Below are positions 12,502-63,998 of a stretch of 64,000 nt of DNA, one piece after another. The stretch is from Thermoanaerobaculia bacterium (GTDB taxonomy: Bacteria; Acidobacteriota; Thermoanaerobaculia; Multivoradales; Multivoraceae). The stretch is from positions 23,514 through 87,513 of the forward strand of contig CALOFD010000012.1 of NCBI GenBank assembly GCA_942492505.1, in the 5' to 3' direction. Numbering within the stretch: position 1 is the stretch's first letter; every line of letters starts with the position of its first letter. The notes under the pieces are model-generated. The model ran no database searches and was not told the origin of the DNA. It was given only the letters and a program-made list of their open reading frames with translations. Position numbers and translations under genes: made by a program.

Positions 12502-12526
12502 GGGCGACGGCCGAAGTACCGAAAAC

Positions 12527-17977: not shown

Positions 17978-18011
17978 CCAGAGCTTCGACCTGCTCACGA
18001 CTGGCTCCGCC

Positions 18012-49763: not shown

Positions 49764-50108
49764 ATGGACATAACGATCAACACACAGCATTTCGATCTGA
49801 CCGCCAACGTCGAGACTGCGATCCGGGATCGGGCCGAAAGGCTCGAGAAGTTCCATCCCAACCTGATCCATTGCATCGTCACTGTCGAGGGACCCAGCGA
49901 GCATCATCAGCACGGCGGGACCTACGATGTGCGTCTCGAGATTCGCCTTCCCGGTCCCGCGATCGTCATCAACCGCCAACCCAACGAAGACCTGGGAATC
50001 GCTCTTCGAGACGCCTTCGAGGCGGCGAAGCGACGCATCGAGGACCACAACGAGAAACTGCGCGGTCCGAGAGGCCACGAACGCAGGCACGGCTCGGTCG
50101 AGGTCTGA
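49764..50108 (+). CDS. hpf: ribosome hibernation promoting factor / RaiA (short form)
   Basis: AAGGAGAGG lies upstream of the ATG at 49764. The product begins MDITINTQHFDLTANVETAIRDRAERLEKFHPNLIHCIVTVE. Confidence 0.88.
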   Translation: MDITINTQHFDLTANVETAIRDRAERLEKFHPNLIHCIVTVEGPSEHHQHGGTYDVRLEIRLPGPAIVINRQPNEDLGIALRDAFEAAKRRIEDHNEKLRGPRGHERRHGSVEV

Positions 50109-50147
50109 TCCGAGCGGCGACCGCCCATCGATGACGCGGGGATCGTC

Positions 50148-51159
50148 TCAGGTCGAGGGGACGCGGAGGCGGACATTGCCGTCCTGGGTGCGAACCCTGA
50201 GCCGACCGGAACCGTCGCCGAGCACGCCCGAGGCTCTCCGGCGCTCCTCGCTGACATCGTCGAGACTCGGTCCATCGATGTCGATCCGACCACTCCCGGT
50301 GTGGATCTCGAAGGCGAGAGCCGCCCCCGGAGGAAGATCGATCTCGACATCGCCATCGTCCGACTCCACATCGATCTGCACCTCGGAGTCGCCGACGAGA
50401 CTCAGTTCGATATCGCCGTCCTGGGTGCGGATATCGATCTCCCCGGCCTCGAGTCGCCGCATCCTCACCGACCCGTCGTCGCCGACTGCGTCGATGTCCC
50501 CGGAGCAGTTCTCGACGTGGAGATCGCCGTCCTGGAGCCGGAAGCGGCCCCCACGACAGGTCGCTGTCACTCAGGTAGACATTGCCGTCATCGGCTCGTA
50601 CGAAGAGCTCGCCGGTCAATCGCTCAGCCGAAACGTCGCCGTCTTCGATCTCGATCGCAACGCGGGGCGAGTCGAGGCCATCGAGATTGACGTCGCCGTC
50701 GTCCAGGCGGATGTCCACTTCTCCAGCCCAGTCGACGACCGAGACGTCGCCGTCGTCGCCGGTGAACTCGAGATCGATCCACGGCGGCGCCGAGATCGTG
50801 TAGAGGTAGTCGTACTGTCGCGAGGAGCGGAAACCGATCGTGAATCCCGACCTGCCCGTCTCCCTGCCGATCACCGTCACCGTGCTGCCGGACTGATCGA
50901 ACTCGACCTCGAAGTCGGCGTCGTCGCGCCCGAGGCCCAACACGGTGATGTCGGCTCGGTACAGCACGTGGACCTCGATCTGCGGCCGCTCCCAGGGGCG
51001 AATCTCGACGTCACCATCGCCATGCTCCAGGCGAAGTCGAGCCCCGGGGGACACCTCGAAGGTCCTGGAGAACTCCTCGTTGATCTCCCTGGCCGAAGCA
51101 GGCGCCGCCAGCAGGGCCAGCGAGAGAACGGACAACCGCAGGAAATGAGCTTGCTTCAT
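50148..51159 (-). CDS. DUF4097-like beta-helical putative adhesin, split by a 1-nt frameshift at a C5 run
   Basis: Signal peptide MKQAHFLRLSVLSLALLAAPASA, then repeated DGDV/DGNV units. Track ORF 49969..51159 degenerates after ...DDGNVYLSDSDLS. ORF 50148..50570 continues the repeats (RFRLQDGDLHVENCSGDID...). Removing one C of CCCCC (50548-50552) joins them. Confidence 0.65.
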
Positions 51160-51210
51160 CGACTTCTCCTTCAGTCATCCCTACGAGATCGACGGGTTCG
51201 ATGTTCTGGC

Positions 51211-51286
51211 GCCCGACGCAGGATGCCCGACGCCGGATGCCCGACGCCGGATGCCCGACGCCGGATGCCCGACGCCGGATGCCCGG
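51211..51286. repeat. 14-bp tandem repeat x5.4 (GCCCGACGCCGGAT)
   Basis: Copies lie at 51211-24 (1 mismatch), 51225-38, 51239-52, 51253-66 and 51267-80, with a partial copy at 51281-86. The repeat sits in the divergent intergenic region between the DUF4097 gene and the ABC permease operon. Confidence 0.9.
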
Positions 51287-51407
51287 TGCTAGCATCGCCC
51301 CGCCCATTCCCCAACGGGACACGTCCGGAAGAGTTCGGTGAATTCTTTCGAATCCGTCGCCGCCTGCCCGCCCAGCCCGCGTCGCAACCACCGCTGATCG
51401 ACACGGC

Positions 51408-52376
51408 ATGCTCACCCGAAGACTTCTCCAGGGAATCCTCCTTCTCTTCGCCGCCTCGGCCCTGTCCTTCCTGCTTGCAGCCCTGACGCCCGGCGAATAC
51501 TTCGACGAACTGCGCCTCGACCCGAACGTTCCCGAAGACACGATCGAGTCGATGCGCCAGCGCTACGGCGTCGGCGACCCTCTAGCGCAGCGATACCTGC
51601 GCTGGCTCGGCTCGGTGACCCGCGGCGAACTCGGTTTCTCGCTGCGCTACCGAACCGAGGTCAGGCCCCTGCTCCTGCGAAGAGCCGGAAACACACTGCT
51701 GTTGACCGGCCTGGCGACTTCTTGCGCGTGGGCTCTCGCACTGCCGTTCGGTATCTGGGCGGCGACGAGCCCGAAGAAATGGGCTTCCTCCTTCTTCTCG
51801 GGATCGACGTCGCTGCTCCTCGCGATCCCCGATCTCGTCCTCGCCCTGCTCGCCCTGATGCTGGCGATCCGCTCCGGTTGGTTTCCCGTCGGGGGCATGA
51901 GGTCCTCGAACTTCGATTCCCTCGGGCCGATCGCCCGAGCTTCTCGACCTGGGGCATCATCTTTGCTGCCGGCCCTGGTGATCGCGCTCGGACTCCTCCC
52001 GACGCTCTCGCGCCATGTCCGCGCCGCGGTCGGCGAGACTCTCGACGCTCCCTTCGTTCGCGCAGCGCGGGCGAGGGGACTCCCCGAACGGACGATTCTC
52101 TATCGGCATGTCCTGCCGGCCGCTGCCAACCCCCTGATCAGTCTTGCAGGCCTGTCGATCGCCTCGCTGGCCGGGATCTCCCTGGTGGTCGAGGTGGTGC
52201 TGGCATGGCCGGGGATCGGCCCGCTGCTCCTCGAGTCGATCCAGGTCCATGACATCGACCTGGTCATCGGCGGCGTCCTGATCACGACGCTCCTCCTGGT
52301 GATCGGAAACGGACTCGCCGACCTCGCCTTGTGGATGACAGATCCTCGACTTCGAAGGCGCGATCCCTCTCCATGA
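51408..52376 (+). CDS. ABC transporter permease (Opp/Dpp B-type, peptide/nickel family)
   Basis: 322-aa ORF. The N-terminus MLTRRLLQGILLLFAASALSF...PGEYF and multiple TM helices match the OppB/DppB pattern. Confidence 0.88.
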   Translation: MLTRRLLQGILLLFAASALSFLLAALTPGEYFDELRLDPNVPEDTIESMRQRYGVGDPLAQRYLRWLGSVTRGELGFSLRYRTEVRPLLLRRAGNTLLLTGLATSCAWALALPFGIWAATSPKKWASSFFSGSTSLLLAIPDLVLALLALMLAIRSGWFPVGGMRSSNFDSLGPIARASRPGASSLLPALVIALGLLPTLSRHVRAAVGETLDAPFVRAARARGLPERTILYRHVLPAAANPLISLAGLSIASLAGISLVVEVVLAWPGIGPLLLESIQVHDIDLVIGGVLITTLLLVIGNGLADLALWMTDPRLRRRDPSP

Positions 52377-53341
52377 GTTCCCGTACGACCCCGCGCCTGC
52401 TGCCTGCCATCCTCGTTCTGGTCCTCATCCATGCGACAGCACTGCTGGCAGGTTTCTTCGGTCCCTACGAGCCCGCCGAGCAGGATCGATCGCGCCCCAG
52501 CGAGTCTCCGTCTTCGATCGACCTCCACGGCGCCGACGGCCGCGTCGGCCTGTTCGTGGCTGACCCGGGCGACATCGCCACGCCCACAGCTCCTCTCCAG
52601 TTCCTCGTCACACGCGACGACAGGGTCCGCCTACTCGGCGTCGATCCGCCCACCCGACTGAATCTGCTCGGAACCGACTCCCTCGGTCGCGATGTGTTCT
52701 CGAGACTGCTGTGGGGAGGTCGCGTCTCACTCCTCGCCGGTCTGGTCGCAACCTTTCTCTCGATCGCACTCGGGACGACACTCGGAATCGTCGCCGGCTT
52801 CTACGGAGGCCGTATCGACGCCCTCCTGATGCGGGTGGCAGATCTGTTCCTCGCGCTTCCGCTCCTCTATCTGCTTCTCGCGATCCGCGCTCTTCTCCCC
52901 CTGTCGATCTCGACCACCACCGCGTTCCTGCTTCTGATCGGGGTTCTCGGTCTCGCCGGATGGGCTCGACCGGCCCGTCTCGTGCGGGGCGTCGCCCTGG
53001 CCGCACGAGAGCGCGACTTCGTTCTGGCGGCGCGCTCCCTCGGCGCCAGTGACATCCACATCCTGTTTCGCCATGTCCTGCCCCAGACGCGAAGCGTGGT
53101 GCTCACACAGGCCGCTCTGCTCGCGCCGCAGTACGTCCTGGCCGAGGTCGCGCTTTCCTACTTCGGGGTCGGCGTCTCGGAACCCACTCCGAGTTGGGGG
53201 ACCATGCTGGCGGAGGGCGCCTCCTTCGCGGCTCTTTCAGTGCCCCATTGGTGGTTGCTCAGCCCCGCCCTGCTGCTGGTCGCCACGTTCGTGGCGTATC
53301 ATTCCCTGGCGCGATCGCTGGATGGAGGTTCGCACGGCTGA
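52373..53341 (+). CDS. ABC transporter permease (Opp/Dpp C-type)
   Basis: The ATG at 52373 overlaps the preceding stop (ATGA). Contains LLGTDSLGRDVFSRLLWGGRVSL, typical of OppC/DppC. Confidence 0.88.
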   Translation: MSSRTTPRLLPAILVLVLIHATALLAGFFGPYEPAEQDRSRPSESPSSIDLHGADGRVGLFVADPGDIATPTAPLQFLVTRDDRVRLLGVDPPTRLNLLGTDSLGRDVFSRLLWGGRVSLLAGLVATFLSIALGTTLGIVAGFYGGRIDALLMRVADLFLALPLLYLLLAIRALLPLSISTTTAFLLLIGVLGLAGWARPARLVRGVALAARERDFVLAARSLGASDIHILFRHVLPQTRSVVLTQAALLAPQYVLAEVALSYFGVGVSEPTPSWGTMLAEGASFAALSVPHWWLLSPALLLVATFVAYHSLARSLDGGSHG

Positions 53342-53350
53342 GAAGTTCCG

Positions 53351-55105
53351 ATGATTGAAACCGCCGCTCGACGGCCTGCCCGATGCTCCCTCGGACTGCT
53401 CGTGGCCCTCGTTGCCGCCCTGTCATTCGGCTGCGGTGACGCGAGCCCGGAGTCCGCGAGCGAGTCGGTCGAGCTGCCCCTTCAGCGCGGCGGACGGCTC
53501 GTTCTGACCCTGAAGAGCGAACCCGAGAGCTTCAATCCCGTCCTCGCCGTCGGCGCCAGCACGCACCGTATCGTCGATCGAATGCATGGCGACCTCCTGC
53601 ATATCGATCCGTTCACGCAGGAGGTGGTACCAAACCTCGCCGAGTCCTGGGACGTCTCGGCAGATGGCACGGTCTACACGGTTCACCTGCGAAAGGGACT
53701 TCGCTTCTCCGACGGGGAAGTCCTCGACGCAGATGACGTCGTGTTCACCTATCGAGTCCACCTCGATCCGTCGATCGCCAGTCCCCAGAGGGATCTGCTG
53801 TCTCCCGGCGGCACTCCCCTGACGATCGAGAAGGTCGACTCCGATACCGTCGAATTCAGCCTCCCCCGCCCGCTGGCGGCGGGCCCCAGACTCTTCGACT
53901 CCATCGCCATCCTGCCGGAGCACCGACTGCGCGAAGCCTGGTCGAGCGGCCGGCTCCAGGAGACCTGGCAGACCTCGACTCCGGCGTCGGAGATCGTTGG
54001 AGCCGGCCCCTTCACGCTCGGCGAGTACCGCAACGGCGAGTTCCTCGACCTCGACCGAAACCCCTACTACTGGAAGACCGGCGACGACGGCGACAGGCGT
54101 CCCTACCTCGACGGGATCCGCTTCCTCTTCGTCTCCGACGACGACGCTCGCGTACTTCGCTTTCAGGCCGGCGAGGCCCACATCATCGACGATCTCGGTT
54201 CCGACAACTTCGCCGCGCTGAGCAGTTCACAGGCCGACACCGGGATGCGACTCGTCGATGCTGGCCCCTCCCTCGAGCGCGAGATGCTGATCCCCAATCT
54301 CAACGATCTCCCGCCGAGCACCGCACCCGAGCACGTCCAGGCCCAGGCCTGGCTGGAGAGACCCGGCTTCCGCAGCGCCCTCTCCCTCGCCATCGACCGC
54401 GACAGCCTCGTTCGGCTGGCCTATCAGGGGCGCGCCAGCGCTCTGCGATCGAACGTCAGTCCGGGGGATCGCTTCTGGCACAACGATTCCCTGCCACCCC
54501 CGGACCGAGATCTCGCGCGCGCTCGCGAAACACTTGAGGGGGAAGGATTCCGATGGGCCGAAGACCAACTCATCGGTCCTGAGGGTGCCCCCGTCCGACT
54601 TTCGATCCTGACGTCTTCCACGAACTCCAAGCGCCTCAAGATGGCAGCCATCATCGAACAGGACCTGGCGGAGCTGGGGATCGAGGTCCGCGTCGTTTCG
54701 CTGCCCCACGGCGCCGTCGTCGAACGGCTCCTGCAGACCTTCGCCTACGACTTGATCCTCCTCGGCTTCGGAAGCGGTGACGCCGACCCCAATCCCGCTC
54801 TTCCCTTCCTCCTATCCACAGGCGGCCTTCACGTGTGGCGACTGAACGACACCGAGCCCTTGAGCCCCTGGCAGGCCGAGATCGATGCACTCATGAAAGC
54901 TCAACTCGTAGAGACCGACCGACAAGCCCGAAAACGCCTCTACGACCGCGTCCAGGAAATCGTGGCAGAAGAACTCCCCGTCATCCCCCTCGTATCCCCC
55001 CACGTCCTGGTAGGCGCCCAGGCCACCGTCGGCAACTTCCGCCCCGCCATCCTCGAACCGAATGCGATCTGGAACGCCGACGAGTTGTTCCTCGCCTCTC
55101 CCTGA
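53351..55105 (+). CDS. ABC transporter substrate-binding protein, family 5 (peptide/nickel)
   Basis: 584-aa ORF with a lipoprotein-like N-terminus (LVALVAALSFGCG) and SBP_bac_5-like sequence. No ATPase genes follow. Confidence 0.85.
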   Translation: MIETAARRPARCSLGLLVALVAALSFGCGDASPESASESVELPLQRGGRLVLTLKSEPESFNPVLAVGASTHRIVDRMHGDLLHIDPFTQEVVPNLAESWDVSADGTVYTVHLRKGLRFSDGEVLDADDVVFTYRVHLDPSIASPQRDLLSPGGTPLTIEKVDSDTVEFSLPRPLAAGPRLFDSIAILPEHRLREAWSSGRLQETWQTSTPASEIVGAGPFTLGEYRNGEFLDLDRNPYYWKTGDDGDRRPYLDGIRFLFVSDDDARVLRFQAGEAHIIDDLGSDNFAALSSSQADTGMRLVDAGPSLEREMLIPNLNDLPPSTAPEHVQAQAWLERPGFRSALSLAIDRDSLVRLAYQGRASALRSNVSPGDRFWHNDSLPPPDRDLARARETLEGEGFRWAEDQLIGPEGAPVRLSILTSSTNSKRLKMAAIIEQDLAELGIEVRVVSLPHGAVVERLLQTFAYDLILLGFGSGDADPNPALPFLLSTGGLHVWRLNDTEPLSPWQAEIDALMKAQLVETDRQARKRLYDRVQEIVAEELPVIPLVSPHVLVGAQATVGNFRPAILEPNAIWNADELFLASP

Positions 55106-55314
55106 AAGATCGAAACAAACGCCCTTCCCATCTCCGATCGAGTCGCTAGACGTCGGGGATCGAACTAGAACAACAGATTGAGAAACTCATCGAGCTGGAG
55201 AGCGACGAGGAGATCCGAGAGTTCATCGCATGGCTCGCAAGTGTTGGGGACTCGATCCTTGCTCCAGCGCTAGCTGGATTCCTCGATGCGCGCGGCCCGA
55301 CAGACGCTGATCCA

Positions 55315-58016
55315 GTGCAACTCAGGGTCGAAAGACTCGTTGATGTGGCGAAGCGTGCGGGGGCAAGCAGAACAACGGCCTTCATCTTCAAGGCCGCGGG
55401 AAACCACATCGCTGCGAACACCCGCGACGCGGAGACAGGCCTCAGCCTTCTCTCAGACGCCCTGGAGCTGTTCACATCCCTTGGAGACGACCTACAGGCA
55501 GGGATCACTCGGAGCTGCCTCATTCTTACCTTGGTGGAGACCGGTGATTTTGAGCGGGCGTCGGCAGAAGCCGGAACCGCCCGACAGACCTTCCAGAGAC
55601 TTGGCGATCAACTTCGGCTCGCAAGACTTGACGTGAACGAGGGCAACATCGCCTTCAAACAAGACCGATTCGCCGACTCAGAGCGTCTGTGGACCAGGGC
55701 CTTGGGAACCTTGATGGTTCGAGGCACCACTACCGACATCACCAATTGTCTGATCAACATAGGCTGCAGCAAGGTGCAGACGGGACACATACCGGAAGCC
55801 CTCAGGCTCTTTGAAAGAGCTAGCACCTTCCTTGCCGAGGAGGGACCGAGTCAGGCCAGACTTGTGCTCCTTTACAATCAAGCTTGGGCCCTCATGCACT
55901 GGGGGCATCACTCTCAAGCCCTCTCACGCCTCATGGCCCTAGAAAAGGCCTTTCTGGAAATAGGGAACCACTACTACGAGGGCCTGGTTCTCCTAGCTCT
56001 CGGCCAGATCCTTCTAGATCATTGGCTTCTGAGAGATGCCCGCCGTCGGATCGATCGGGCGCTGTCTCTGTTTGCGCGGCGCCACGCACCCTACGAACGT
56101 GCAAAGGCCTTCTTCCTTCTCGCAGTCTGTGAGTCGTCTTCCGGTGATCTGGATGTGGCAATGCAACTCCTCGATCAGGCCCAAGCTCGCTTTGAGAGAC
56201 TTGGCAATACAGCCTGGCTTCAGAGAATTAGGTTGCAGAAGGGACAGATACTCCTCGCAAGCGGACGGACGGAGCAAGCGCTGCGAATAGCACGACTATG
56301 CGAGTCGGACCTTGGGCCTCCAGCGACACCAGACATCGAATGCCTTTTCGACCTTCTCTACGGCCAATGTCTCGCAGCGACAGGGGAATCAAAACAGACC
56401 TTCGAACTCGCTCGAAGTCTGTTGCCAAGAGTGGTCCTGCTCGATCGAAAGCACCTTGAGATCGAAGCCCTAGCTCTAGTCGGGAGGTCGGCAGAAGACC
56501 TTGGCTTGGACAACCAAGCCGCCAAGGCCTACCTCCAAGCCGCTGCGCTCGTTGAATCCATCAGTGAGTCTCTACCACCACTAGACCTGAGAGGTGGATT
56601 CCTTGCTGGGAAGGTAGACGTCTACCAACGCCTATTTCTTCTGGCAGCTCGAAAGGGGGACGTCATCCGCGCCTTCGCCTCAATCGAGCGCTCCAAGGCT
56701 GTGAGATTTCACTACTACTCGTCGAAGCCGTTCTGGCAAGACACGACTGCAAGGAGCGGCAGCGCGGCTTCCGAGTTGAGTGCCGGGGCTGAAGAACTAA
56801 GAAGACTTTCCCACCAACTTCGTGAACTCCGAGCAAGCGAGCAGCGAAGAGGTGCCTCGCAGATCGGAGATCTCGCCTCAGTCCTTGAGTCCGAAGCCAC
56901 CGAAACGCTGAGGTTCATGGGAGTAAGGGGACACAAGGAAGGAGCAGGTCCGCTCCCTGAGCTGACAGATGTTCAGGAAGCTCTCGGTTCGCAAACTACT
57001 CTGCTGCACTATTACTCCACCGGCGATCAACTTTGGTGCTTGTCAGCCACGCGCGACAGCGCCAATCTGTTCGAGATTGGGAGCTCCTCTGAAATTGCCG
57101 AGGCCCTTCAGCTATTTAGGTACGCGCTAACTCCTGCAGCAGCAGGTAGAGACCAACAAGCCAGAACCAGAGCAGAGCATCACCTCAGTCGACTTCACAA
57201 CCTTCTCCTCGCACCTGTTGAAGGCACGCTACTCGAGCAGCTGATCGTCATTCCCGAGGGGAGTCTTTCCCGGGTGCCGTTCCATGCGCTCCTGGGACCT
57301 GATCGGGAGTACATGATCGATCGACACAGATTGACCGTCCAGCCCTCGGCGCAATGTCTGTCTGAATGCTCCAGTCAACCCGCAAAGAGCATTGGAGCAT
57401 CCCTATTGGTAGGTGTCGGCGACTCAGTAGCTACAGGCATGGGTGCCGAAGCCGAGCAGCTCTCAAGATTGATTCCAGGTGCTCGCCTTCTCCTAGGTCA
57501 CGATGCAACGGCGGCGGTCGTAGCAAACGAGATCGAGTCAGTCCAACTCGTCCACTTTGCCAGTCATGGAATGTTTGAGGAGCTAGGCCTCTCTTCTCCC
57601 ATCTCAGACTCGGTGATGGTCCCTTCTACCTTCACGACTTGGTCGGGCTGGATCTCACAAACATCGAACTTGCGGTGCTGAGCGGATGCAACATGGGGGT
57701 CGAGCCGGAAGGCCCAACGGCATACATGATGGCTTGGCCACATTTCTTAATGGCTTCTGGAGTGCGAGCTGTTGTTTCTGCCCTCTGGCGGGTTGATGAC
57801 GCAGCTAGCGTTTACTTCATGAGGTGCTTCTATGAAGGTCTCATGAGCGGGGTGCCCAAGGACGAATGTCTGAGACGAGCCTGTCTAAGCGTCCGTGAGA
57901 TTCGCAGGCATCCATACTTTTGGGCTCCCTTCGTCCTCGCAGGGTCAAGTGATGCAATTGAGTTTGCCCCCCCGCCCCCTTCTGAGGTTCACGATGTCAG
58001 CCAGCACTTCAGATAG
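55315..58016 (+). CDS. TPR-repeat CHAT-domain (caspase-like) protease, catalytic dyad intact; one frameshift; start unresolved
   Basis: Track ORFs 55315..57681 and 57639..58016. The His motif VHFASHG lies in the first, and the Cys motif LSGCNMG plus the terminal HPYFWAPFVLAG in the second. Adding one C to CCC (57598-57600) joins them (...LGLSSPHLRLGDGPFYLHDLVGLDL...). The same frame is open and protein-like back to 55150 with no ATG/GTG/TTG. Confidence 0.8.
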
Positions 58017-58082
58017 ACGAGTGCCTGCTACAGTTTCTGGACTGGGACGGGAAGAACTTAGGCTCAGAACCAGGTAGCTATA

Positions 58083-60932
58083 GTGCAGAAGGAATTCTCG
58101 GTCGATCTGACCGCAGTCCGCGCTCTCAGAACAGAGAACGAACGTCTTGAGTTCCTTGCTGCGAACCCATTAGCCGTGTCCCGAGAGGGTCTATCGCACT
58201 TAGCGGCAGAGGCAGTAGAACTCCTCTCATCTGATCTTGAAGGCTGCGATGATTTCCTTGAAACCTTGGAGTGGTTTTCCGAAAGAGCGAAGGATGACTA
58301 TTCCAGGGGCAGGGTGTTGCGCGCCAAGGCCAATGCGAGGTACGTGCAGGGGCGCTTGGAGGAGGCTGTAGGAGCATTCGAAGAGGCAGCGAACCTCTTC
58401 GCTTCAGCCGGGGAGGAACTTGACGAAGCAATCACGTACAGCTCCGGCCTTCTCTCGATTCTCCTGACGGGTGATCATCGTCGAGTCGAAGAATGGGCGC
58501 GCCGAGCACGATCGATCTTCGATGCACTCGGGGACGATCTGAGATTAGCTCGGCTGAACTTTAACTACGCGAACGTACTCTTCCGACGAGATCGCTGGGA
58601 GGATGCAGCGAAGAGCTATGAGGCTGCTTATGGAATCTTCAAGCGCCTAGGGAGTCACCGAGACGTCGCGACTTGCCTAAGCAACATGGCCGTATGCCAG
58701 ATAAGCGTTCACAACTCTGACAAGGCGGCCTATTTCTACAGCAGGGCTCGGTCCTACTGTGAGTCTCATGGACTGGCAGTGCTCACCGCGAGAATCGACT
58801 ACAACTATGCCTACCTTTTCTATCTCCGAGGTGAGTACACGACCTCTCTGGAGCTCTTTGAGCAAGCCCGAGAACGCTGCATCGCATTGGGGGACCAATA
58901 CCATCCTGTTCTCTGCAACCTCGACGAGGCAGAAATCTACCTAGAACTGAACCTGACCCAAGAAGCGACCACTCTGGCCTCAAGAGCGCACCAGGGCTTC
59001 GAAAGCTTGGGAATGCCCTATGAGAGCGCGAAGGCTCTTACTCTCTGGGCGATTGCCGTCGGCAGGCAAGGGAAATGGATCGCGGCTCTCGAGATGCTTC
59101 AACGCGCCCGCTCGATCTTTGAGCGAGAAGAGAACGAGGTTTACAAGAGCCAACTAGATCTTCATTCCGGGATAGTGCTTCTCAAGGCGGGCAGACCCTT
59201 TGAAGCTATCCGGTTAGCCAAACGCGCGCAGAAAGGTCTAGCTAGTCTGGGATTGCAGAGAAAGGAGGCCCAAGCATGCCTGCTGATCTGCAAAGGCCGA
59301 CTCGATCAACGGCACTTAGACGAGGCGGAAACAGAGCTTCGGAAAGCCTTCAGCCTTGCATCTGGACCTGGTAGCGCAACCGTTCTTTGGCAGGCCCACT
59401 ACCTCGCCGGAAGAATAGATCTTGAGAGGGGGGATCGAAGTTCAGCGGAACGAGCTTTCCGTCTGGCGCACGAGAGTCTTGAAGAGATCCGAAGCCACGT
59501 ACGTACAGAGGAGCAAAAGATTCCGCTCGTGGACGACAAGCTTGTCGTCTACGAAGAACTTGTTGTCCAACTGGCTTCGGAAACGCAGACTCCTGAGATC
59601 GCGGCGGAGGCCTTCAAGTTCGTCGAGAAGGCCAAAGCCAGGTCTCTCTCTGACATGGTCGCGACACGAGCAGCGACCCTGTCGGAAAGAACGTCAGGTC
59701 GCAGCCAGCTGGCATCCCAAGTCTCAAAGCTCCGGGAGGAGCTGAACTGGTACTACCGCCAGATAGACCTTCAAGAGATGAGGGGAGACGCGCACGAGCC
59801 CGGGAGCATGTCTCCCTTGCTGAATGCGAGCGAGCGTTATGAGGCGGACCTTCTCAAGTCCTTGGGTCGACTCTCGTCGACTGACAGGGAGGTTAGCTCA
59901 CTTCAAGAGGCATTGGTGGTTGATCCGTCTTCTATTCAGGAACTCCTCAGCCAAGATGAAGTCATCCTAGACTTCTATGAGGCCAAGGGAGTTATGTACG
60001 TCGCCACCCTAGATCAGAGTAGCGCGGAGATCATTCCCGCGACGCTCTCCTCTATCGCTAGTGACCTTTATACCGAGCTTCGATATGTAATGAGCCGACT
60101 CCAGGCTGACCCAGACACCGCGCGAAGCCCAAACGATCAAGCCGGCCTTGACTTGCAGCATCTCTTGGAGAGGCTTTTCGACGAGCTCATTTCACCGATA
60201 GCCCACCGCCTCAAACCAAAGCTGGTTGTGGTTCCATGTGGTGCCCTCTTCCACCTACCGTTTCACGCGCTGAACGGCCCCATAGGTCCCTTATCCAAAG
60301 AGCACCAAGTCACCTATTCGCCAAGCGCTACAACATGGTTTCTCTCTCGCTCAAGAGAAGCTTCGTCGAACACTGGTCTCCTCGTCGCGTTTGAACAACC
60401 TCGAATCAGCACTATTGAGGCATGCTTCAGAAACTCTCTGTTCAGGGCTGCAACCTCCCCTAACGATTTTGTCGAGGAAGCTCGTGAAGCAAGGACCATC
60501 TTCGCGGACGGCTCGGCGTCCTATCGACCAGACAATCCGATGTTCTCGACTCTGCGGATTGCCGGCAAAGACTACTCCCTGTTCGATCTTCTGAACTTGG
60601 ACTTGGACGCTCAACTATTCGTGCTTTCAGGGTTTCAGCAGACTTCGTTGGCAGCGAGCAAGGGTGACGAAGTCTTTGGTCTTTACAGGACCCTCCTGTA
60701 CGCAGGCTCACGGGCGATTGTCCACAACCTTTGGCGACCAAGCGCCCGTGCCCAGGAGAAGTTCGTGGTGAGGCATTGGCAAGACTGGCCTCCGGCACCA
60801 GCGTGCAGATCTCATACTCGGAGACGATGGACGAACTCCGTCAAACACTCTCAGCGGTCCTCACGAGTGGGGACCCTTCGTTCTCGTCAACTCAGTAAGG
60901 CCGAGGAGTGTTCAATAGCCGATCTAGCATAA
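58083..60932 (+). CDS. TPR-repeat CHAT-domain paralogue with substituted catalytic residues (predicted inactive); C-terminus frameshifted twice
   Basis: GTG start. It has TPR-like repeats and a CHAT-like C-terminal domain. The His motif position reads IFADGSASY and the Cys motif reads LSGFQQT. The canonical ending (FYEALARLASG...HEWGPFVLVNS) is recovered only through two -1 frame changes near 60765 and 60865, giving a probable true stop at 60916-60918. Confidence 0.78.
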   Translation: MQKEFSVDLTAVRALRTENERLEFLAANPLAVSREGLSHLAAEAVELLSSDLEGCDDFLETLEWFSERAKDDYSRGRVLRAKANARYVQGRLEEAVGAFEEAANLFASAGEELDEAITYSSGLLSILLTGDHRRVEEWARRARSIFDALGDDLRLARLNFNYANVLFRRDRWEDAAKSYEAAYGIFKRLGSHRDVATCLSNMAVCQISVHNSDKAAYFYSRARSYCESHGLAVLTARIDYNYAYLFYLRGEYTTSLELFEQARERCIALGDQYHPVLCNLDEAEIYLELNLTQEATTLASRAHQGFESLGMPYESAKALTLWAIAVGRQGKWIAALEMLQRARSIFEREENEVYKSQLDLHSGIVLLKAGRPFEAIRLAKRAQKGLASLGLQRKEAQACLLICKGRLDQRHLDEAETELRKAFSLASGPGSATVLWQAHYLAGRIDLERGDRSSAERAFRLAHESLEEIRSHVRTEEQKIPLVDDKLVVYEELVVQLASETQTPEIAAEAFKFVEKAKARSLSDMVATRAATLSERTSGRSQLASQVSKLREELNWYYRQIDLQEMRGDAHEPGSMSPLLNASERYEADLLKSLGRLSSTDREVSSLQEALVVDPSSIQELLSQDEVILDFYEAKGVMYVATLDQSSAEIIPATLSSIASDLYTELRYVMSRLQADPDTARSPNDQAGLDLQHLLERLFDELISPIAHRLKPKLVVVPCGALFHLPFHALNGPIGPLSKEHQVTYSPSATTWFLSRSREASSNTGLLVAFEQPRISTIEACFRNSLFRAATSPNDFVEEAREARTIFADGSASYRPDNPMFSTLRIAGKDYSLFDLLNLDLDAQLFVLSGFQQTSLAASKGDEVFGLYRTLLYAGSRAIVHNLWRPSARAQEKFVVRHWQDWPPAPACRSHTRRRWTNSVKHSQRSSRVGTLRSRQLSKAEECSIADLA

Positions 60933-60944
60933 GATCGGTGTGCA

Positions 60945-61655
60945 ATGTCCACCCCATCGAACATGCTCAGCCCCTTGAACAGGAACCCTCGCATAGCCCT
61001 CAAAAAGCTTGAAGAAGAGGTGCGAAAGACAAGAACGGGTGTCATGTACGCTCTGAACATGATGCTTGATCTCAAGGATCTTCGGACCGGTTTCCATGCG
61101 ACCCGTCTCGCAGAGTGGGCAGTGAGGGTTGCCGAAGACGTTGGAGTTACCAAGGAGGATCTCGAAGATATTGAGCGAGCCTCTCTCCTGCACGATATCG
61201 GGAAGATAGGGGTCCCTGACCAAATTCTTCTCAAACCGGGGAAGCTCACAGAATCCGAGCGAGAGCTAGCCGAGAAGCACCCTGAGTTCGGTTGGGCCAT
61301 TCTGCGACCGATCCCTGGCTTTGAGAAAGCTAGCCTCCTTGTGCTCCACCACCATGAACGCTGGGACGGAGGGGGCTACCCGGCAGGTCTAACGGGATCC
61401 GAGATCCCGCTGGGTTCTAGAATCGTGTCGATCGTAGATGCCTACGACGCGATGATCTCGGATCGAGCCTACCGGTCTGGCCTGCCCAAAGAGGAGGCAC
61501 TTAGACGCCTAAGGAAGGATGCGGGGAGCCAGTTCGATCCGGAATTGACCGAGTTTTTTATCCGGCTTGTTGAAAGCGTTGAGGATGATGCCGAGGGCAG
61601 CATGGAACGGGCTATTCCTGACTTCGCGATCGCTCGAGTTCAACAATCCCTTTGA
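60945..61655 (+). CDS. stand-alone HD-GYP domain protein (cyclic-dinucleotide phosphodiesterase family)
   Basis: 236-aa ORF with LLHDIGKIGVPD and HHHERWDGGGYPAGL. There is no receiver or other sensor domain. Confidence 0.88.
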   Translation: MSTPSNMLSPLNRNPRIALKKLEEEVRKTRTGVMYALNMMLDLKDLRTGFHATRLAEWAVRVAEDVGVTKEDLEDIERASLLHDIGKIGVPDQILLKPGKLTESERELAEKHPEFGWAILRPIPGFEKASLLVLHHHERWDGGGYPAGLTGSEIPLGSRIVSIVDAYDAMISDRAYRSGLPKEEALRRLRKDAGSQFDPELTEFFIRLVESVEDDAEGSMERAIPDFAIARVQQSL

Positions 61656-61858
61656 CTCATTGAATCTTGTTCGCATAAAATTGCTCAGACAACCGATTGC
61701 GTTCAGGGGCATCCGCTCCTGAAAGGTAGCCCGACGAAACTCTCCGACTTTGGAGGAGGTCGCTGGTCCTGCCTTTCTAGCCCCTAGGACTTAGGCCAAC
61801 ATAGTAGAGAAGATCTAGAACACCTACCTACCAGTCTCTGGCTGCGTAGAACCGCAAA

Positions 61859-61902
61859 CCCCGCTTCACTCCGGATTCTTGCTGGAGGTGACGGGGGTTT
61901 TT
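61859..61902 (+). terminator. intrinsic-terminator-like hairpin + T-tract just upstream of the micro-ORF cassette
   Basis: CCCCG-ct-TCAC-TCCGG-attcttg-CTGGA-g-GTGA-CGGGG followed by G-TTTTT (61898-61902). About 14 bp are paired and the loop is 7 nt. Confidence 0.55.
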
Positions 61903-61938
61903 GCGTTTATAGGGACTTTAACCAATTTGGGAGAGACG

Positions 61939-61988
61939 ATGAGCACCATCAAGAGTTGGTCAGAGCATTGACTGCATCAAGGAAGTAA
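61939..61988 (+). pseudogene. decayed leading copy of the micro-ORF
   Basis: ATGAGCACCATCAAGAGTTGGTCAGAGCATTGACTGCATCAAGGAAGTAA matches the GGTCAGAGCAT(C/T)GACTGCATCAAGGAA core. However, it is about 7 nt shorter, out of frame (MSTIKSWSEH*), and an extra G destroys the normal stop. Confidence 0.6.
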
Positions 61989-62021
61989 CCCTCAATCCCC
62001 ATCCAAACGGAGACACACACC

Positions 62022-62078
62022 ATGAAGATCAAAACCAGCGTCAAGGTCGGTCAGAGCATCGACTGCATCAAGGAATAA
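62022..62078 (+). CDS. micro-ORF copy 1, 18-aa peptide MKIKTSVKVGQSIDCIKE
   Basis: GGAG lies 9 nt upstream. ATG...TAA, with codon 10 = GGT. Confidence 0.7.
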   Translation: MKIKTSVKVGQSIDCIKE

Positions 62079-62111
62079 CCCTCAATCCCCATCCAAACGG
62101 AGACACACACT

Positions 62112-62168
62112 ATGAAGATCAAAACCAGCGTCAAGGTCGGGCAGAGCATCGACTGCATCAAGGAATAA
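62112..62168 (+). CDS. micro-ORF copy 2, identical 18-aa peptide
   Basis: GGAG lies 9 nt upstream. ATG...TAA, with codon 10 = GGG. Confidence 0.7.
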   Translation: MKIKTSVKVGQSIDCIKE

Positions 62169-62201
62169 CCCTCAATCCCCATCCAACCGGAGACACACAC
62201 C

Positions 62202-62258
62202 ATGAAGATCAAAACCAGCGTCAAGGTCGGACAGAGCATCGACTGCATCAAGGAATAG
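62202..62258 (+). CDS. micro-ORF copy 3, identical 18-aa peptide
   Basis: GGAG lies 9 nt upstream. ATG...TAG, with codon 10 = GGA. Confidence 0.7.
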   Translation: MKIKTSVKVGQSIDCIKE

Positions 62259-62297
62259 CTACCTTTCACACCTCATAAACGATCAGGGAGTTTCACC

Positions 62298-62363
62298 ATG
62301 AAGATCAAAACCAGCGTCAAGGTCGGTCAAGAGAGATCGAGAGGAGTACCCATCCAGGAATAA
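62298..62363 (+). CDS. micro-ORF copy 4, variant 21-aa peptide MKIKTSVKVGQERSRGVPIQE
   Basis: GGGAG lies 7 nt upstream. The first 11 codons match the other copies in amino acid sequence (codon 11 CAA instead of CAG, both Gln), the tail diverges, and the frame and stop (TAA) are retained. Confidence 0.65.
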   Translation: MKIKTSVKVGQERSRGVPIQE

Positions 62364-62396
62364 CCCCGGACACCCAAGCAACCGGAGACACACACC

Positions 62397-62453
62397 ATGA
62401 AGATCAAAACCAGCGTCAAGGTCGGGCAGAGCATCGACTGCATCAAGGAATAG
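62397..62453 (+). CDS. micro-ORF copy 5, identical 18-aa peptide
   Basis: GGAG lies 9 nt upstream. ATG...TAG, with codon 10 = GGG. Confidence 0.7.
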   Translation: MKIKTSVKVGQSIDCIKE

Positions 62454-62461
62454 TCGAATCC

Positions 62462-62608
62462 ATGAAAACAAAGACAAACCTCAAGGCCGGATTCTCTGGG
62501 AGCGTCAAACCGCAGGTGTTTGAACTTCTCGAGACTCTGGTGAATCGACCCTCAGATCATCGATTCACAGTCAAGACTGGCCAGGCCGTTTCGGCCATTC
62601 TCGAATAG
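62462..62608 (+). CDS. 48-aa ORF related to the micro-ORF peptides at both ends
   Basis: MKTKTNLKAGFSGSVKPQVFELLETLVNRPSDHRFTVKTGQAVSAILE*. It starts 8 nt after copy 5, and the AAGGAA inside the copy-5 end could serve as its SD. The N-terminal MKTKTNLKAG and the C-terminal VKTGQAVSAILE parallel MKIKTSVKVG and VKVGQSIDCIKE. Confidence 0.6.
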   Translation: MKTKTNLKAGFSGSVKPQVFELLETLVNRPSDHRFTVKTGQAVSAILE

Positions 62609-62616
62609 CACTCAGC

Positions 62617-62682
62617 GCCGCGCCTGGTCGCGGCGGCTGTGTGAACCGCAGACCGGGGACCTCACCCAGGAGTGGTCTGCGG
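62617..62682. terminator. two GC-rich hairpins between convergent genes (possible bidirectional terminator)
   Basis: GCCGCG-cctggt-CGCGGC (62617-62634) and CCGCAGACC-19 nt-GGTCTGCGG (62646-62682). There is no clear U-tract. Confidence 0.4.
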
Positions 62683-62750
62683 GTGGCGAACAGCCATCTG
62701 GCCGTGGTCTATTCAGCCACGCCCATCCCCCCCGGGGCCTTCTCCCCCGG

Positions 62751-63998
62751 CTACGAGTGACCGACGACTGCCAGGGTCGGTGATCTCGCGATGATCACCT
62801 TGGCTGCGAGCATCGCGCTCTCGCCGTCGAGGCCACCCAGACTCTCGTCCAGGATCGAGATGTCGTGCTCCTGGATCAGGGTTCTCGCAATGAAGACGCG
62901 GCTGCGTTCTCCATGAGAGAGCTGCCAGCCGTTCTCTCCCACCATTTGGAACAGTCCCGACGGCATTCGCTCGAGGAGATCTCCGAGACCGAGTTCCCGG
63001 CAGAGTTCTTCGGCCCTATCGAGATCTTCCTTCATCGGCGGCCAGCGGTGCCCCATGAGGATGTTGAACGCCAACGACTCGCTCAGGATGTGGTTCTCGT
63101 GGAACTGCGGAGCGAGAATCACCGACTTGCGCCAGAATGCCGTGCCGGCACTCGTTCGATCGAGCCCCCTGAACAGTAGAAGCCCTGTCGAGGGACTGCG
63201 AAGTCCGGCAAGCAGGCTGGCCAGCGTCGACTTTCCCGAACCTGAGGGCCCCTCGAGAAGGATCCGGTCGCCCGCTGCGACCTCGAGGTCGAGATCGTCG
63301 ATGACCGGCTGAGTTCTCGAGGCGTACTGAAAGCCGAGTTCCTTCGCCTCCAGAAGCACTCGTCCCCTCGACTGCCCGCGAGTCAAGGCGAGATCGGGAT
63401 CCGATCGGAGAGAAGGCCGTGCTGCCGCGTCGAACATTTCCGCAACCTGATCCCAGGCGATCGAGGCACCCGACAATTGGCTCAGCCCGAGGGTGACTCT
63501 TCGAAGTGCGCCGTAGGCGAGCAAGATCCCTCCAAACGCCACCGCCAGGCTCTCACTCGAGGCACGGTCGCCCACCAGCAGCGGGGCGAGCCCGAGAACC
63601 CCGACGATCATCCAGCCCCGCGGCAGCGCAGATCCAAGACTCGCGGCAAGCCGATCGAGTCCTCGCGAAGCCCGACTGTATGCCTCGACTTCCCGGTCCT
63701 CGTCTTCGTGCCAACGAGCTCTCGATTCCTGGGCCTGACGCGTGCGATGTCCGAGGAGGCTCTCCACCAGAGCGTAGGTCAGACTCAGCCTGCCTTCGGT
63801 CCAGCCCCGTCTTCGGGCCGCGTAGCGACGCCCCACCCAGTAGACCACCACACTCCAGCCGACCAGCAGCAGGGCGTGGAGGGGGCCTCCGGCGCCGAGC
63901 CCCAGTACGACGGCCGCGAAGGCGACCTCGATGGCCCCCAACAGAAGGTGGAAGCCCCCGTTCAGGGCGAGCGACTCCATCGCTTCCGATTCGAGCAC
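62751..63998 (-). CDS. ABC exporter, fused TMD-NBD (N-terminus beyond the window end)
   Basis: The ORF is open to the window edge. About 200 aa of TM region precede the NBD, which has Walker A GPSGSGKST, an atypical signature LSHGERSR and Walker B ISILDES. It converges on the micro-ORF cassette. Confidence 0.85.
   Translation of the reverse strand: MLESEAMESLALNGGFHLLLGAIEVAFAAVVLGLGAGGPLHALLLVGWSVVVYWVGRRYAARRRGWTEGRLSLTYALVESLLGHRTRQAQESRARWHEDEDREVEAYSRASRGLDRLAASLGSALPRGWMIVGVLGLAPLLVGDRASSESLAVAFGGILLAYGALRRVTLGLSQLSGASIAWDQVAEMFDAAARPSLRSDPDLALTRGQSRGRVLLEAKELGFQYASRTQPVIDDLDLEVAAGDRILLEGPSGSGKSTLASLLAGLRSPSTGLLLFRGLDRTSAGTAFWRKSVILAPQFHENHILSESLAFNILMGHRWPPMKEDLDRAEELCRELGLGDLLERMPSGLFQMVGENGWQLSHGERSRVFIARTLIQEHDISILDESLGGLDGESAMLAAKVIIARSPTLAVVGHS

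Follow-up and report, generated by a model that had tools for sequence, protein, structure and literature searches.

The far end of a 64,000-nucleotide stretch of DNA from a Thermoanaerobaculia bacterium (contig CALOFD010000012.1), the whole of which was analysed and is hereafter called the window, carries at 51408–63998 genes for an Opp/Dpp-type ABC importer, two TPR–CHAT proteins and a stand-alone HD-GYP protein, an array of 18-codon peptide genes and a subunit of an ABC exporter. These parts make up a cassette (importer, TPR–CHAT, stand-alone HD-GYP, 18-residue peptide array and C39-ABC exporter) that recurs in unrelated assemblies; the relatives compared with the window are labelled L001–L023. 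The genes listed by a first-pass annotation of the stretch are all present and in the order it claimed, according to open reading frame (ORF) listing and Pfam scans.

Reading along the plus strand, the first gene (51408–52376) encodes an importer permease of the Opp/Dpp type (Pfam BPD_transp_1, E = 7e-30; 58% identity with the syntenic gene of L001), followed by a second permease (52331–53341; BPD_transp_1, E = 7e-23; 52% identity with L001 and 51% with L006) and a family-5 substrate-binding lipoprotein (SBP) of the peptide type (53351–55105; SBP_bac_5, E = 2.5e-77; lipobox LSFGC; 50% identity with L001). Two TPR–CHAT genes come next on the same strand, both with the architecture of an N-terminal TPR superhelix and a C-terminal CHAT caspase fold (Pfam TPR_12 and CHAT). 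The first, termed a-type (55159–58016; ORF 55315–57681; 30% identity with L001), is disrupted. Homology to the L001 a-type protein begins at 55159 by tblastn and the first ATG, GTG or TTG occurs only at 55315, leaving the gene with no canonical start. In addition, a 1-nucleotide frameshift lies between 57567 and 57588, the alignment running in one frame over 55159–57567 and in another over 57588–57944, and it falls exactly between the catalytic His (VHFASHG) and Cys (LSGCNMG). The description of this protein as an active protease therefore holds in part: both catalytic residues are kept, but in different reading frames. Apart from the protein itself, all matches in a protein search with CHAT-a are at most 30% identical, the best being P0002, in L001.

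The second gene, termed b-type (58083–60932, plus strand; 42% identity with the L001 b-type), encodes a pseudo-protease and putative peptide receptor. Its catalytic His is replaced (GSAS) and its Cys is changed to Phe (LSGF), as expected from its earlier designation as inactive, and two frameshifts after about 60782, within the last ~60 codons, spread the C-terminal motifs across three frames. Neither window protein thus presents the catalytic dyad of TPR–CHAT proteases in one frame, the b-type for want of both residues and the a-type through the frameshift. The CHAT N-termini of the window and of P0004 show no obvious signal peptide or hydrophobic segment, as judged by eye. The defects of the two window genes would be either true pseudogenisation or assembly errors.

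A stand-alone HD-GYP gene of 236 amino acids (60945–61655, plus strand; HD_5, E = 4e-41; 68% identity with L001), lacking a receiver domain, separates the CHAT genes from the peptide array. A sigma-70-like promoter candidate for the array (61652–61681, plus strand; TTGACT-18-TAAAAT, 10 of 12 matches) is followed by a 5′-leader hairpin and a U5 tract, terminator-like in this copy (61853–61902, plus strand; RNA fold dG -26.9, z -2.25). The array itself spans 61939–62608 on the plus strand and opens with a degenerate, frameshifted peptide gene (61939–61988; repeat family D3) that reads MSTIKSWSEH and then a stop, with VGQSIDCIKE in another frame. Four intact copies encode MKIKTSVKVGQSIDCIKE: copy 1 (62022–62078) has a GGAG-type ribosome-binding site on its 5′ side, and copies 2, 3 and 4 (62112–62168, 62202–62258 and 62397–62453) match the peptide pattern described below with synonymous differences only. 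Between copies 3 and 4 lies a variant, MKIKTSVKVGQERSRGVPIQE (62298–62363), with an unchanged leader and a core altered by indels. The last gene of the array (62462–62608) encodes a 48-residue long-form precursor that begins MKTKTNLKAG and continues through FTVKTG into QAVSAILE (C-terminal part FTVKTGQAVSAILE). GC-rich hairpins with no strand assigned (62609–62697; RNA fold dG -50.9, z -3.4) lie between the array and the convergent exporter gene (62751–63998, minus strand), of which the window end leaves the C-terminal 415 amino acids of an ABC subunit (Pfam ABC_tran; 64% identity with the 706-residue ABC protein of L001).

The GC contrast noted in the first-pass annotation is real: the flanks have about 0.65, the CHAT and HD genes 0.55–0.57 and the peptide region 0.50. 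Its reading as a recent insertion does not stand: L001 has the same dip over the same genes at 30–68% protein identity, which rules out recent horizontal transfer of the low-GC block and makes the dip an old property of the module. The remainder of the window is ordinary chromosome, with genes for ribosomal protein S1, ParC/ParE, SelO and a Ser/Thr kinase. A 776-residue protein (15740–18070, minus strand) with a C-terminal Ser/Thr kinase domain and a sub-threshold TPR-like match at its N terminus is apparently unrelated to the cassette, and two ORFs without a Pfam or NCBIfam match (49927–51486, plus strand, 519 amino acids; 11915–14605, plus strand, 896 amino acids) each overlap a long ORF on the opposite strand and may be spurious in high-GC sequence.

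Co-occurrence of the MKxKT-type micro-ORF arrays with TPR–CHAT, HD-GYP, Opp and ABC genes, which the first-pass annotation had named as a check, extends to other assemblies, in full in L001, with the parts rearranged in L018 and L019, and partially in L006, L010, L013, L015, L017 and L020. Gene order and strand vary between loci, and protein identities range from 30 to 68%. In L001, where both CHAT genes are intact, the order is permease, permease, SBP, DUF222–HNH, a 983-residue TPR–CHAT, a 957-residue TPR–CHAT, a 243-residue HD_5 protein, the array, and a convergent 706-residue ABC gene followed by an 867-residue Peptidase_C39 ABC gene; its array contains MRSSGVKSGQVTNAILE, MKVRTNIRAGQVANAILE, two copies of MKVRTSAKAGQVANAILE and a 50-residue long form ending KTGQAVAAILE. 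L018, in a 6.8-Mb genome, has an a-type CHAT, CHAT-b, HD-GYP and nine peptide genes, of which five are copies of MN(V/I)KTNVKAGSHLNHIME and two are long forms; beyond these, insertion sequences separate an ABC gene from a C39-ABC gene. L019 holds two OppD/F-like ATPases, two permeases, an SBP, CHAT-b, four peptide genes on the opposite strand that read M(K/N/S)T(K/Q)(T/S)HVKAGATVTIIIS, an inverted HD-GYP gene, an HlyD-type adaptor and two ABC genes, the first encoding a C39 domain, and this rearrangement of the same parts argues for function over inherited synteny. L020 carries the same importer, CHAT-b and three copies of MKTKTHVKTGQSTIGIVL up to the contig end; L006 an ATPase, two permeases, an SBP, CHAT-b and then at least three peptide genes; and L010 CHAT-b, a peptide gene, two HD-GYP genes and an ECF (extracytoplasmic function) sigma gene. 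The fragments L013 and L015 comprise HD-GYP, the array and, after it, the ABC and C39-ABC genes. In L017 the most divergent long form, preceded by five short variants, lies between HD-GYP and a convergent ABC gene. Mobile elements break otherwise intact cassettes in two places, a DUF222–HNH gene between SBP and CHAT-a in L001 (8346–9779) and ISAZ013 and IS21 elements between the two exporter genes of L018 (17159–21749).

Peptide genes adjoin CHAT-b at a distance of 0.1–1.9 kb in all seven His-less loci that lack a sigma gene, and an HD-GYP gene adjoins the His-less CHAT in 7/7 loci with flank available, as against one of the three dyad-intact sigma-type loci. The a-type CHAT occurs only in the window, L001 and L018, which are the three loci that show long-form precursors together with the upstream region, and is 26–32% identical between loci.

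In the 18-residue peptides, the first 10 residues form a conserved, Lys-rich leader (MKxKTxxKAG) and the last 8 a core that is specific to each locus. Across loci the leader keeps M, K, T at position 5, V/L/I at 7, K/R at 8, A at 9 and G at 10, and the cores read QSIDCIKE, QVANAILE, QSVVAILE, SHLNHIME, ATVTIIIS, QSTIGIVL and QSINAIVE. A degenerate DNA pattern for the 18-mer, which fixed seven residues and the stop codon of an 18-codon gene, has four matches in the window and none in 100 shuffles. Searched more widely, it found six loci in species-representative genomes and five more in metagenomes, all clear family members such as MKTKTTIRAGQSTTAILE, in Acidobacteriota, Thermoanaerobaculia and Candidatus Multivoradales metagenome-assembled genomes (MAGs) and in one unclassified bacterium; it had zero matches in 2.9 million viral contigs. 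The loci reached independently of the pattern (the window, L001 and L017–L020) carry the same leader, and a scan of the peptides with NCBIfam returned no family match. Orphan 18-residue genes, single or double and with the core QST(T/A)(A/G/H)ILE, occur in high-GC Acidobacteriota MAGs at L007 3156–3457, L008 5328–5384, L009 6701–6757, L011 6774–6830, L012 2133–2189, L014 1606–1662 and L016 665–721; L007 and L009 are syntenic, beside AcrB and a ~400-residue protein without assigned identity, and the orphan copy of L011, like the L010 locus, adjoins an ECF sigma gene of the PF07638 type.

By comparison of the copies, the peptides can be shown to be translated and under selection. A GGAG-like ribosome-binding site precedes every copy; pairwise codon differences within arrays number 65 synonymous versus 31 nonsynonymous, and the nonsynonymous changes all fall at leader positions 2–9, with none in the 8-residue core. 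Between loci the core does change: the CHAT-b proteins of L019 and L020 are 73% identical, yet their cores differ (ATVTIIIS and QSTIGIVL). The long-form precursors, of 48–56 residues and ending QAV(S/A)AILE, are rare (8 clusters among 5.8 billion proteins), and every one with readable context lies between the HD-GYP gene and the exporter. The short-form leader is 10 residues long and ends AG, VG or TG, with V/L/I at -4 and K/R/N at -7 relative to the core, and the long-form leader is about 40 residues long and ends KTG. The conserved leader, the variable core, the intact C39 domain described below and a Sec-type alternative make the product most likely a secreted octapeptide cleaved after Gly10. 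That alternative is found at L021 13740–13910, where a 56-residue ORF with a Sec signal peptide ends in ...LTQSTSAILEDRAA, its octapeptide core QSTSAILE matching that of leader-type 18-mers (QSTxAILE). Because this precursor carries the same core, an extracellular octapeptide is suggested, and the leader-type 18-mers and the L021 precursor appear to be one signal family with two export routes.

The importer is linked to the cassette through its SBP, which carries a signal peptide here and in the other loci. The window SBP is 41–50% identical to SBPs that adjoin TPR–CHAT genes in L001, L003, L004 and L006, and its closest solved relatives are the peptide binders Lmo0135, AppA and DppA. Of the 12 loci with upstream flank, 10 have an SBP_bac_5 gene beside the CHAT or sigma gene, eight of them directly upstream on the same strand; the exceptions are L001, where the HNH gene intervenes, and L023, where the SBP is divergent. 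In L019, L020 and L022 the SBP stop codon overlaps the start of the next gene (ATGA; a CHAT or sigma gene), which points to translational coupling. ATPase genes of the importer are present in L003, L019, L020 and L022, and L006 has one partial match at the locus edge.

At the other end, the window exporter gene encodes the subunit without a C39 domain. In L001 its 706-residue counterpart is followed by the 867-residue C39-peptidase ABC protein, and by synteny the C39 partner of the window gene would be expected past the end of the window. Aligned to a ComA sequence, the domains recorded as Pfam PF03412 (C39) in L001, L015 and L019 retain Cys, His and Asp (MDCGPA, THY/THF and VMDP). All class-A loci that extend far enough contain an exporter. 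Membership of the NHLP equivalogs TIGR03796 and TIGR03797 does not follow, since the proteins score below every NCBIfam cut-off: 206 bits against 853 for NHLP ABC1 and, for ABC2, 104 (window) and 159 (L001 C39-ABC) against 709. Given the recurrent linkage across loci, importer and exporter are, on sequence grounds, integral parts of the cassette. The suspicion that they might be coincidental neighbours is countered by the SBP linkage, the ATGA coupling and the retained catalytic residues of the C39 domain.

The b-type CHAT proteins belong to a family of full-length proteins of ~950 residues, with at least 404 matches at E <= 1e-60 in an indexed search; 3,662 clusters at 50% identity match at E <= 1e-30 and may include other TPR–CHAT proteins. 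In family alignments both His and Cys are present in 83% of members; the His is missing from about 15% of full-length cluster representatives, with Arg its most frequent replacement and the Cys usually retained. A rough neighbour-joining tree indicates about five independent losses. Among b-type orthologues the His is lost in 7/7 and the Cys kept in 6/7, the window copy being the only one to lose it. The CHAT protein invariably found with the peptides, having lost its catalytic His, is a conserved, predicted pseudo-protease. The expectation of a peptide-gated protease accordingly needs dividing: it would suit the accessory a-type paralogue and the sigma-linked relatives, but judged by the residue states the peptide-linked loci do not have it as their conserved core.

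The AlphaFold2 model built for the intact CHAT-b of L001 (pLDDT 86.7, pTM 0.77) has 22 TPR helices that lead through a helical linker into a CHAT fold. Its top Foldseek matches are Csx29 (8eey_B, E = 4e-14), separase and DdvA (8rw5), and in the model its TPR part resembles the peptide-binding TPR domains of LGN/Pins. A sequence search of PDB chains with CHAT-b gave a best E of 0.11. Homology to RRNPP receptors is not detected, the RNPP_C match to TPR–CHAT being limited to 37 residues (E = 0.0074; 16.2 bits against a cut-off of 26.5). With PADLOC there was no match for the window CHAT proteins, a best CHAT score of 17.8 bits (to BovA, from L001 CHAT-b only, and not significant), and only weak generic Cas3-HD matches for HD-GYP.

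Relatives linked to sigma factors have a different layout. The dyad-intact L003, L004 and L022 are operons of importer/SBP, ECF sigma, TPR–CHAT and an anti-sigma factor of ~205 residues, sometimes with a secreted S8 peptidase, and L021 and L023 combine an SBP, an ECF sigma factor, a His-less CHAT, a ZAS-like anti-sigma factor and HD-GYP. Their coordinates are L003 3982–13564, L004 7561–13728 and 16669–20165, L022 4110–15067, L021 7693–14636 and L023 7377–14401. More broadly, the operon type comprises an Opp-like importer/SBP, an ECF sigma factor, a cytoplasmic TPR–CHAT of ~950 residues and a soluble, ZAS-like anti-sigma factor of ~205–237 residues, then sometimes an S8 peptidase or HD-GYP. This wider type is apparently undescribed, and its composition suggests an importer-fed, protease-gated release of the sigma factor. 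The sigma-linked relatives with an active dyad probably cleave their ZAS-type anti-sigma factor, which would parallel the Csx29–Csx30–sigma system (PMC10028731) and what has been proposed for DdvA (PMC11506125). Several motif searches found no peptide genes in L003, L004 or L022. A 50-residue ORF of L023 that was considered as a precursor was rejected as a fragment resembling the C terminus of an anti-sigma factor.

The HD-GYP protein has intact HD (LHDIGK) and HHHERWDGGGYP motifs, and its closest solved proteins are the active enzymes PmGH (4mcw, E = 1e-41), V-cGAP3 and PA4781; by domain and motifs it is a predicted cyclic-dinucleotide phosphodiesterase. Genes with a PilZ domain, the receptor domain for cyclic di-GMP (c-di-GMP), lie within a few kilobases of two loci of the SBP–sigma–CHAT–HD-GYP kind (L004 6346–6699 and L021 16042–16761), a proximity that fits a c-di-GMP output.

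Upstream of the arrays, sites resembling TTGACA/TTGCAT-N17-TACAAT were seen by eye at the same place in L001, L015, L017 and L018. In four loci (window 61851–61908, L001 16926–16984, L015 535–593 and L013 259–317), a stem-loop of ~55 nucleotides (CTCCGG..GC.GGAGGTG..GGGG) separates the first peptide gene from the sigma-70-like promoter, with compensatory changes in 3 of 13 pairs and a U-tract after it only in the window copy. This conserved stem-loop may be a leader or attenuator RNA. A coding role for the element was rejected, as the window and L001 copies are in different frames and most differences between L001 and L015 are nonsynonymous; a hairpin fits better. An Rfam scan of the window, L001, L018 and L019 found no c-di-GMP riboswitch or other known RNA, and no shared k-mers of at least 8 nucleotides were found in the spacers between HD-GYP and array.

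We consider it fairly probable that the locus is one copy of a conserved, undescribed cassette for cell–cell signalling by peptides, found mainly in Acidobacteriota-like environmental bacteria. The combination had been called novel at the outset, and a full-text search of the literature agrees, yielding no paper on such a system and none that links TPR–CHAT with HD-GYP, peptide import, solute-binding proteins or quorum sensing. From the observed gene content, linkage, selection on the peptides and residue states, we infer steps of cleavage, import, binding and HD-GYP output that would run as follows. The C39-ABC exporter would cut the precursor after Gly and secrete the octapeptide; at high density, the SBP and permeases would take it back in, and it would bind the TPR superhelix of the pseudo-protease. 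The pseudo-protease would then release or activate HD-GYP, which would lower c-di-GMP or a related cyclic dinucleotide and so switch the lifestyle of the cell. The dyad-intact TPR–CHAT paralogue would be accessory and may cleave a partner in a peptide-dependent manner.

A broader claim, which we advance tentatively as somewhat short of an even chance, is that this would be the first import-type (RRNPP-like) pheromone system outside Bacillota, assembled from unrelated parts: a C39-ABC exporter, a dedicated Opp-like importer and a TPR–CHAT that, through repeated loss of its His, would have become a ligand-gated pseudo-protease controlling HD-GYP and hence c-di-GMP. On the same view, the relatives with an intact dyad would make up a large, so far uncharacterised class of proteases, fed by importers and gated by peptides, whose action frees ECF sigma factors.

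Several observations weigh against such a signalling circuit. On the import side, no OppD/F-type ATPase genes adjoin the importer in the window or in L001, an adjacent importer is absent from L010 and L018, none of the NCBIfam matches of the SBP, to nickel, opine and peptide binders, reaches the cut-off, and the ligand of a family-5 SBP could be something other than this peptide. On the export side, the 10-residue leader is far shorter than canonical double-glycine leaders (~15–30 residues), lacks hydrophobic residues at -7 and -12, and has Ala, Val or Thr at position -2. Part of the leader conservation is ascertainment bias imposed by the search pattern, and 7 of the 11 pattern-found loci are orphans, with no CHAT, HD-GYP or exporter gene within the 2–8 kb available. 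Finally, because both CHAT genes of the window are frameshifted, with an a-type that lacks a canonical start and a b-type that lacks Cys and His, the circuit in this genome may be decaying.

The last point leads to the alternative that survives best, namely that the cassette type is real and the window copy is a decaying relic with no working circuit in this organism; here the chances look evenly balanced. To the CHAT-a frameshift between His and Cys and its missing start, the two frameshifts at the end of CHAT-b and the loss of Cys in this b-type copy alone can be added two degenerate peptide copies out of seven (one a remnant, one scrambled), the importer without adjacent OppD/F genes and the state of the scanned large housekeeping ORFs elsewhere in the window, which match their Pfam domains (domain matches being the basis of that comparison). 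Set against decay are four peptide copies, the long precursor, HD-GYP, SBP and permeases, all intact, with the four copies differing only synonymously; the indels could be MAG assembly errors; and L001 likewise has no adjacent ATPases, yet its CHAT genes are intact.

It is unlikely, in our judgement, that the peptides instead act inside the cell as ligands or pseudo-substrates of TPR–CHAT with no export–import loop, the exporter serving to remove or detoxify them and the importer sensing unrelated environmental peptides. Orphan copies and an L010 locus with no nearby exporter would suit this explanation, as would a leader atypically short for C39 processing and SBP–sigma–CHAT–anti-sigma operons (L003, L004 and L022) in which no local peptide gene is recognisable and the importer may sense external peptides. 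It fits poorly with a conserved Gly-ending leader and variable core of the kind typical of exported peptides, with a C39 domain whose catalytic residues are intact, with a Sec signal on the same core in L021 and with the exporter in every class-A locus of sufficient length.

Quite improbable is a bacteriocin-like or RiPP-like (ribosomally synthesised and post-translationally modified peptide) export cluster of array and C39-ABC pair, with TPR–CHAT, HD-GYP and importer as unrelated neighbours or generic regulators. Within NCBIfam the exporters are most similar to the NHLP bacteriocin export models ABC1 and ABC2, and multi-copy precursor arrays are common in such clusters, but the scores lie far under the cut-offs, the predicted core has only 8 residues, no locus has a modification enzyme or immunity gene, the importer linkage holds in 10/12 loci, and where the exporter is missing (L010, and L006 and L020 up to their contig ends) the peptide genes stand directly beside CHAT-b. 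Least probable of all is an anti-phage or abortive-infection module in which TPR–CHAT senses infection in the manner of craspase or DdvA and HD-GYP degrades cyclic-nucleotide signals: its nearest structures, Csx29 and DdvA, are both defence-linked (PMC10028731, PMC11506125), the a-type CHAT diverges very fast (26–32% identity), L018 contains insertion sequences and GC is low, but no CHAT protein has a significant PADLOC match and the surroundings hold no CRISPR, CBASS or other defence gene. Further points against it are a catalytically dead partner CHAT, the link of the cassette to secreted peptides and a peptide importer, the lack of any match to the peptide pattern among the viral contigs, and the age of the GC dip, which L001 shares.

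If the signalling reading is true, it has consequences beyond this locus. Peptide pheromones that are exported, re-imported and read by TPR proteins are regarded as a speciality of Bacillota, and the cassette would be a convergent invention of RRNPP-like logic in Acidobacteriota-like bacteria by non-homologous parts, giving a first handle on cell–cell signalling in a dominant and poorly understood phylum of soil and sediment. To our knowledge, only the CRISPR-associated Csx29 and the anti-sigma factor DdvA are so far understood in the large family of ~950-residue TPR–CHAT proteins, to which the cassette would assign short peptides as ligands and both c-di-GMP turnover and ECF sigma release as outputs. 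The repeated loss of His, always alongside an HD-GYP partner, would be a clear case of a protease that has become a pseudo-enzyme switch. Octapeptides are easily synthesised, which makes the hypothesis directly testable.

Parts of the cassette resemble several known systems. As in pairs of the caspase-8/cFLIP type, an active caspase-fold paralogue is encoded beside a dead one in the window, L001 and L018; unlike in those pairs, the dead paralogue is the conserved member and often stands alone, and heterodimerisation would be pure conjecture. The proposed path from a cell-density signal to c-di-GMP degradation by HD-GYP is that of the diffusible signal factor system RpfC/RpfG of Xanthomonas. 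There, a fatty-acid-sensing histidine kinase controls RpfG by way of its receiver domain, whereas the cassette HD-GYP has no receiver domain and would presumably be controlled by contact with the peptide-binding pseudo-protease.

In craspase, Cas7-11–Csx29 cleaves Csx30 and thereby frees an ECF sigma factor (PMC10028731), and DdvA/DdvS is a TPR–CHAT anti-sigma system of Myxococcus for which a model has been proposed (PMC11506125). Both share the TPR–CHAT architecture and are top structural matches, and the placement of TPR–CHAT between ECF sigma and ZAS-like anti-sigma genes in L003, L004, L021, L022 and L023 suggests a similar signal-gated proteolytic release of sigma. The cassette differs in that its signal would be an imported peptide rather than a target RNA or a periplasmic cue, its proteins appear soluble and cytoplasmic, and the window-type receptor lacks the catalytic His and is paired with HD-GYP instead of sigma and anti-sigma factors.

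With C39-ABC double-glycine export (ComAB/ComC, class II bacteriocins, NHLP/Nif11) the cassette shares an N-terminal C39 domain with Cys, His and Asp, a second ABC subunit, an HlyD-type adaptor in L019, and a conserved leader that ends in a small residue and Gly with a hydrophobic residue at -4. Its short-form leader, in contrast, is a Lys-rich 10-mer, its exporters fall below all NCBIfam equivalog cut-offs, and its octapeptide would be re-imported rather than sensed by a histidine kinase or used as a toxin.

In its overall logic the proposed circuit parallels the RRNPP(A) peptide quorum-sensing systems of Bacillota (Rap/Phr, NprR/NprX, PlcR/PapR, Rgg/SHP, PrgX and AimR/AimP). In both, a tiny precursor gene lies beside a receptor gene, and the proposed circuit would likewise use a secreted, processed oligopeptide of 5–10 residues, re-import of the Opp type and a cytoplasmic TPR receptor. 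The cores diversify in the style of pherotypes, and the Sec-type pro-peptide of L021 resembles Phr and PapR. The logic, as predicted here, is that of RRNPP with no component detectably homologous: the cassette receptor of ~950 residues is fused to a CHAT (pseudo)protease instead of a helix-turn-helix or phosphatase domain, export is by C39-ABC, a dedicated importer belongs to the same operon, an HD-GYP protein or ECF sigma factor provides the output, and the hosts are Acidobacteriota-like and probably diderm, with HlyD-type adaptor and OEP genes in L019 and L021.

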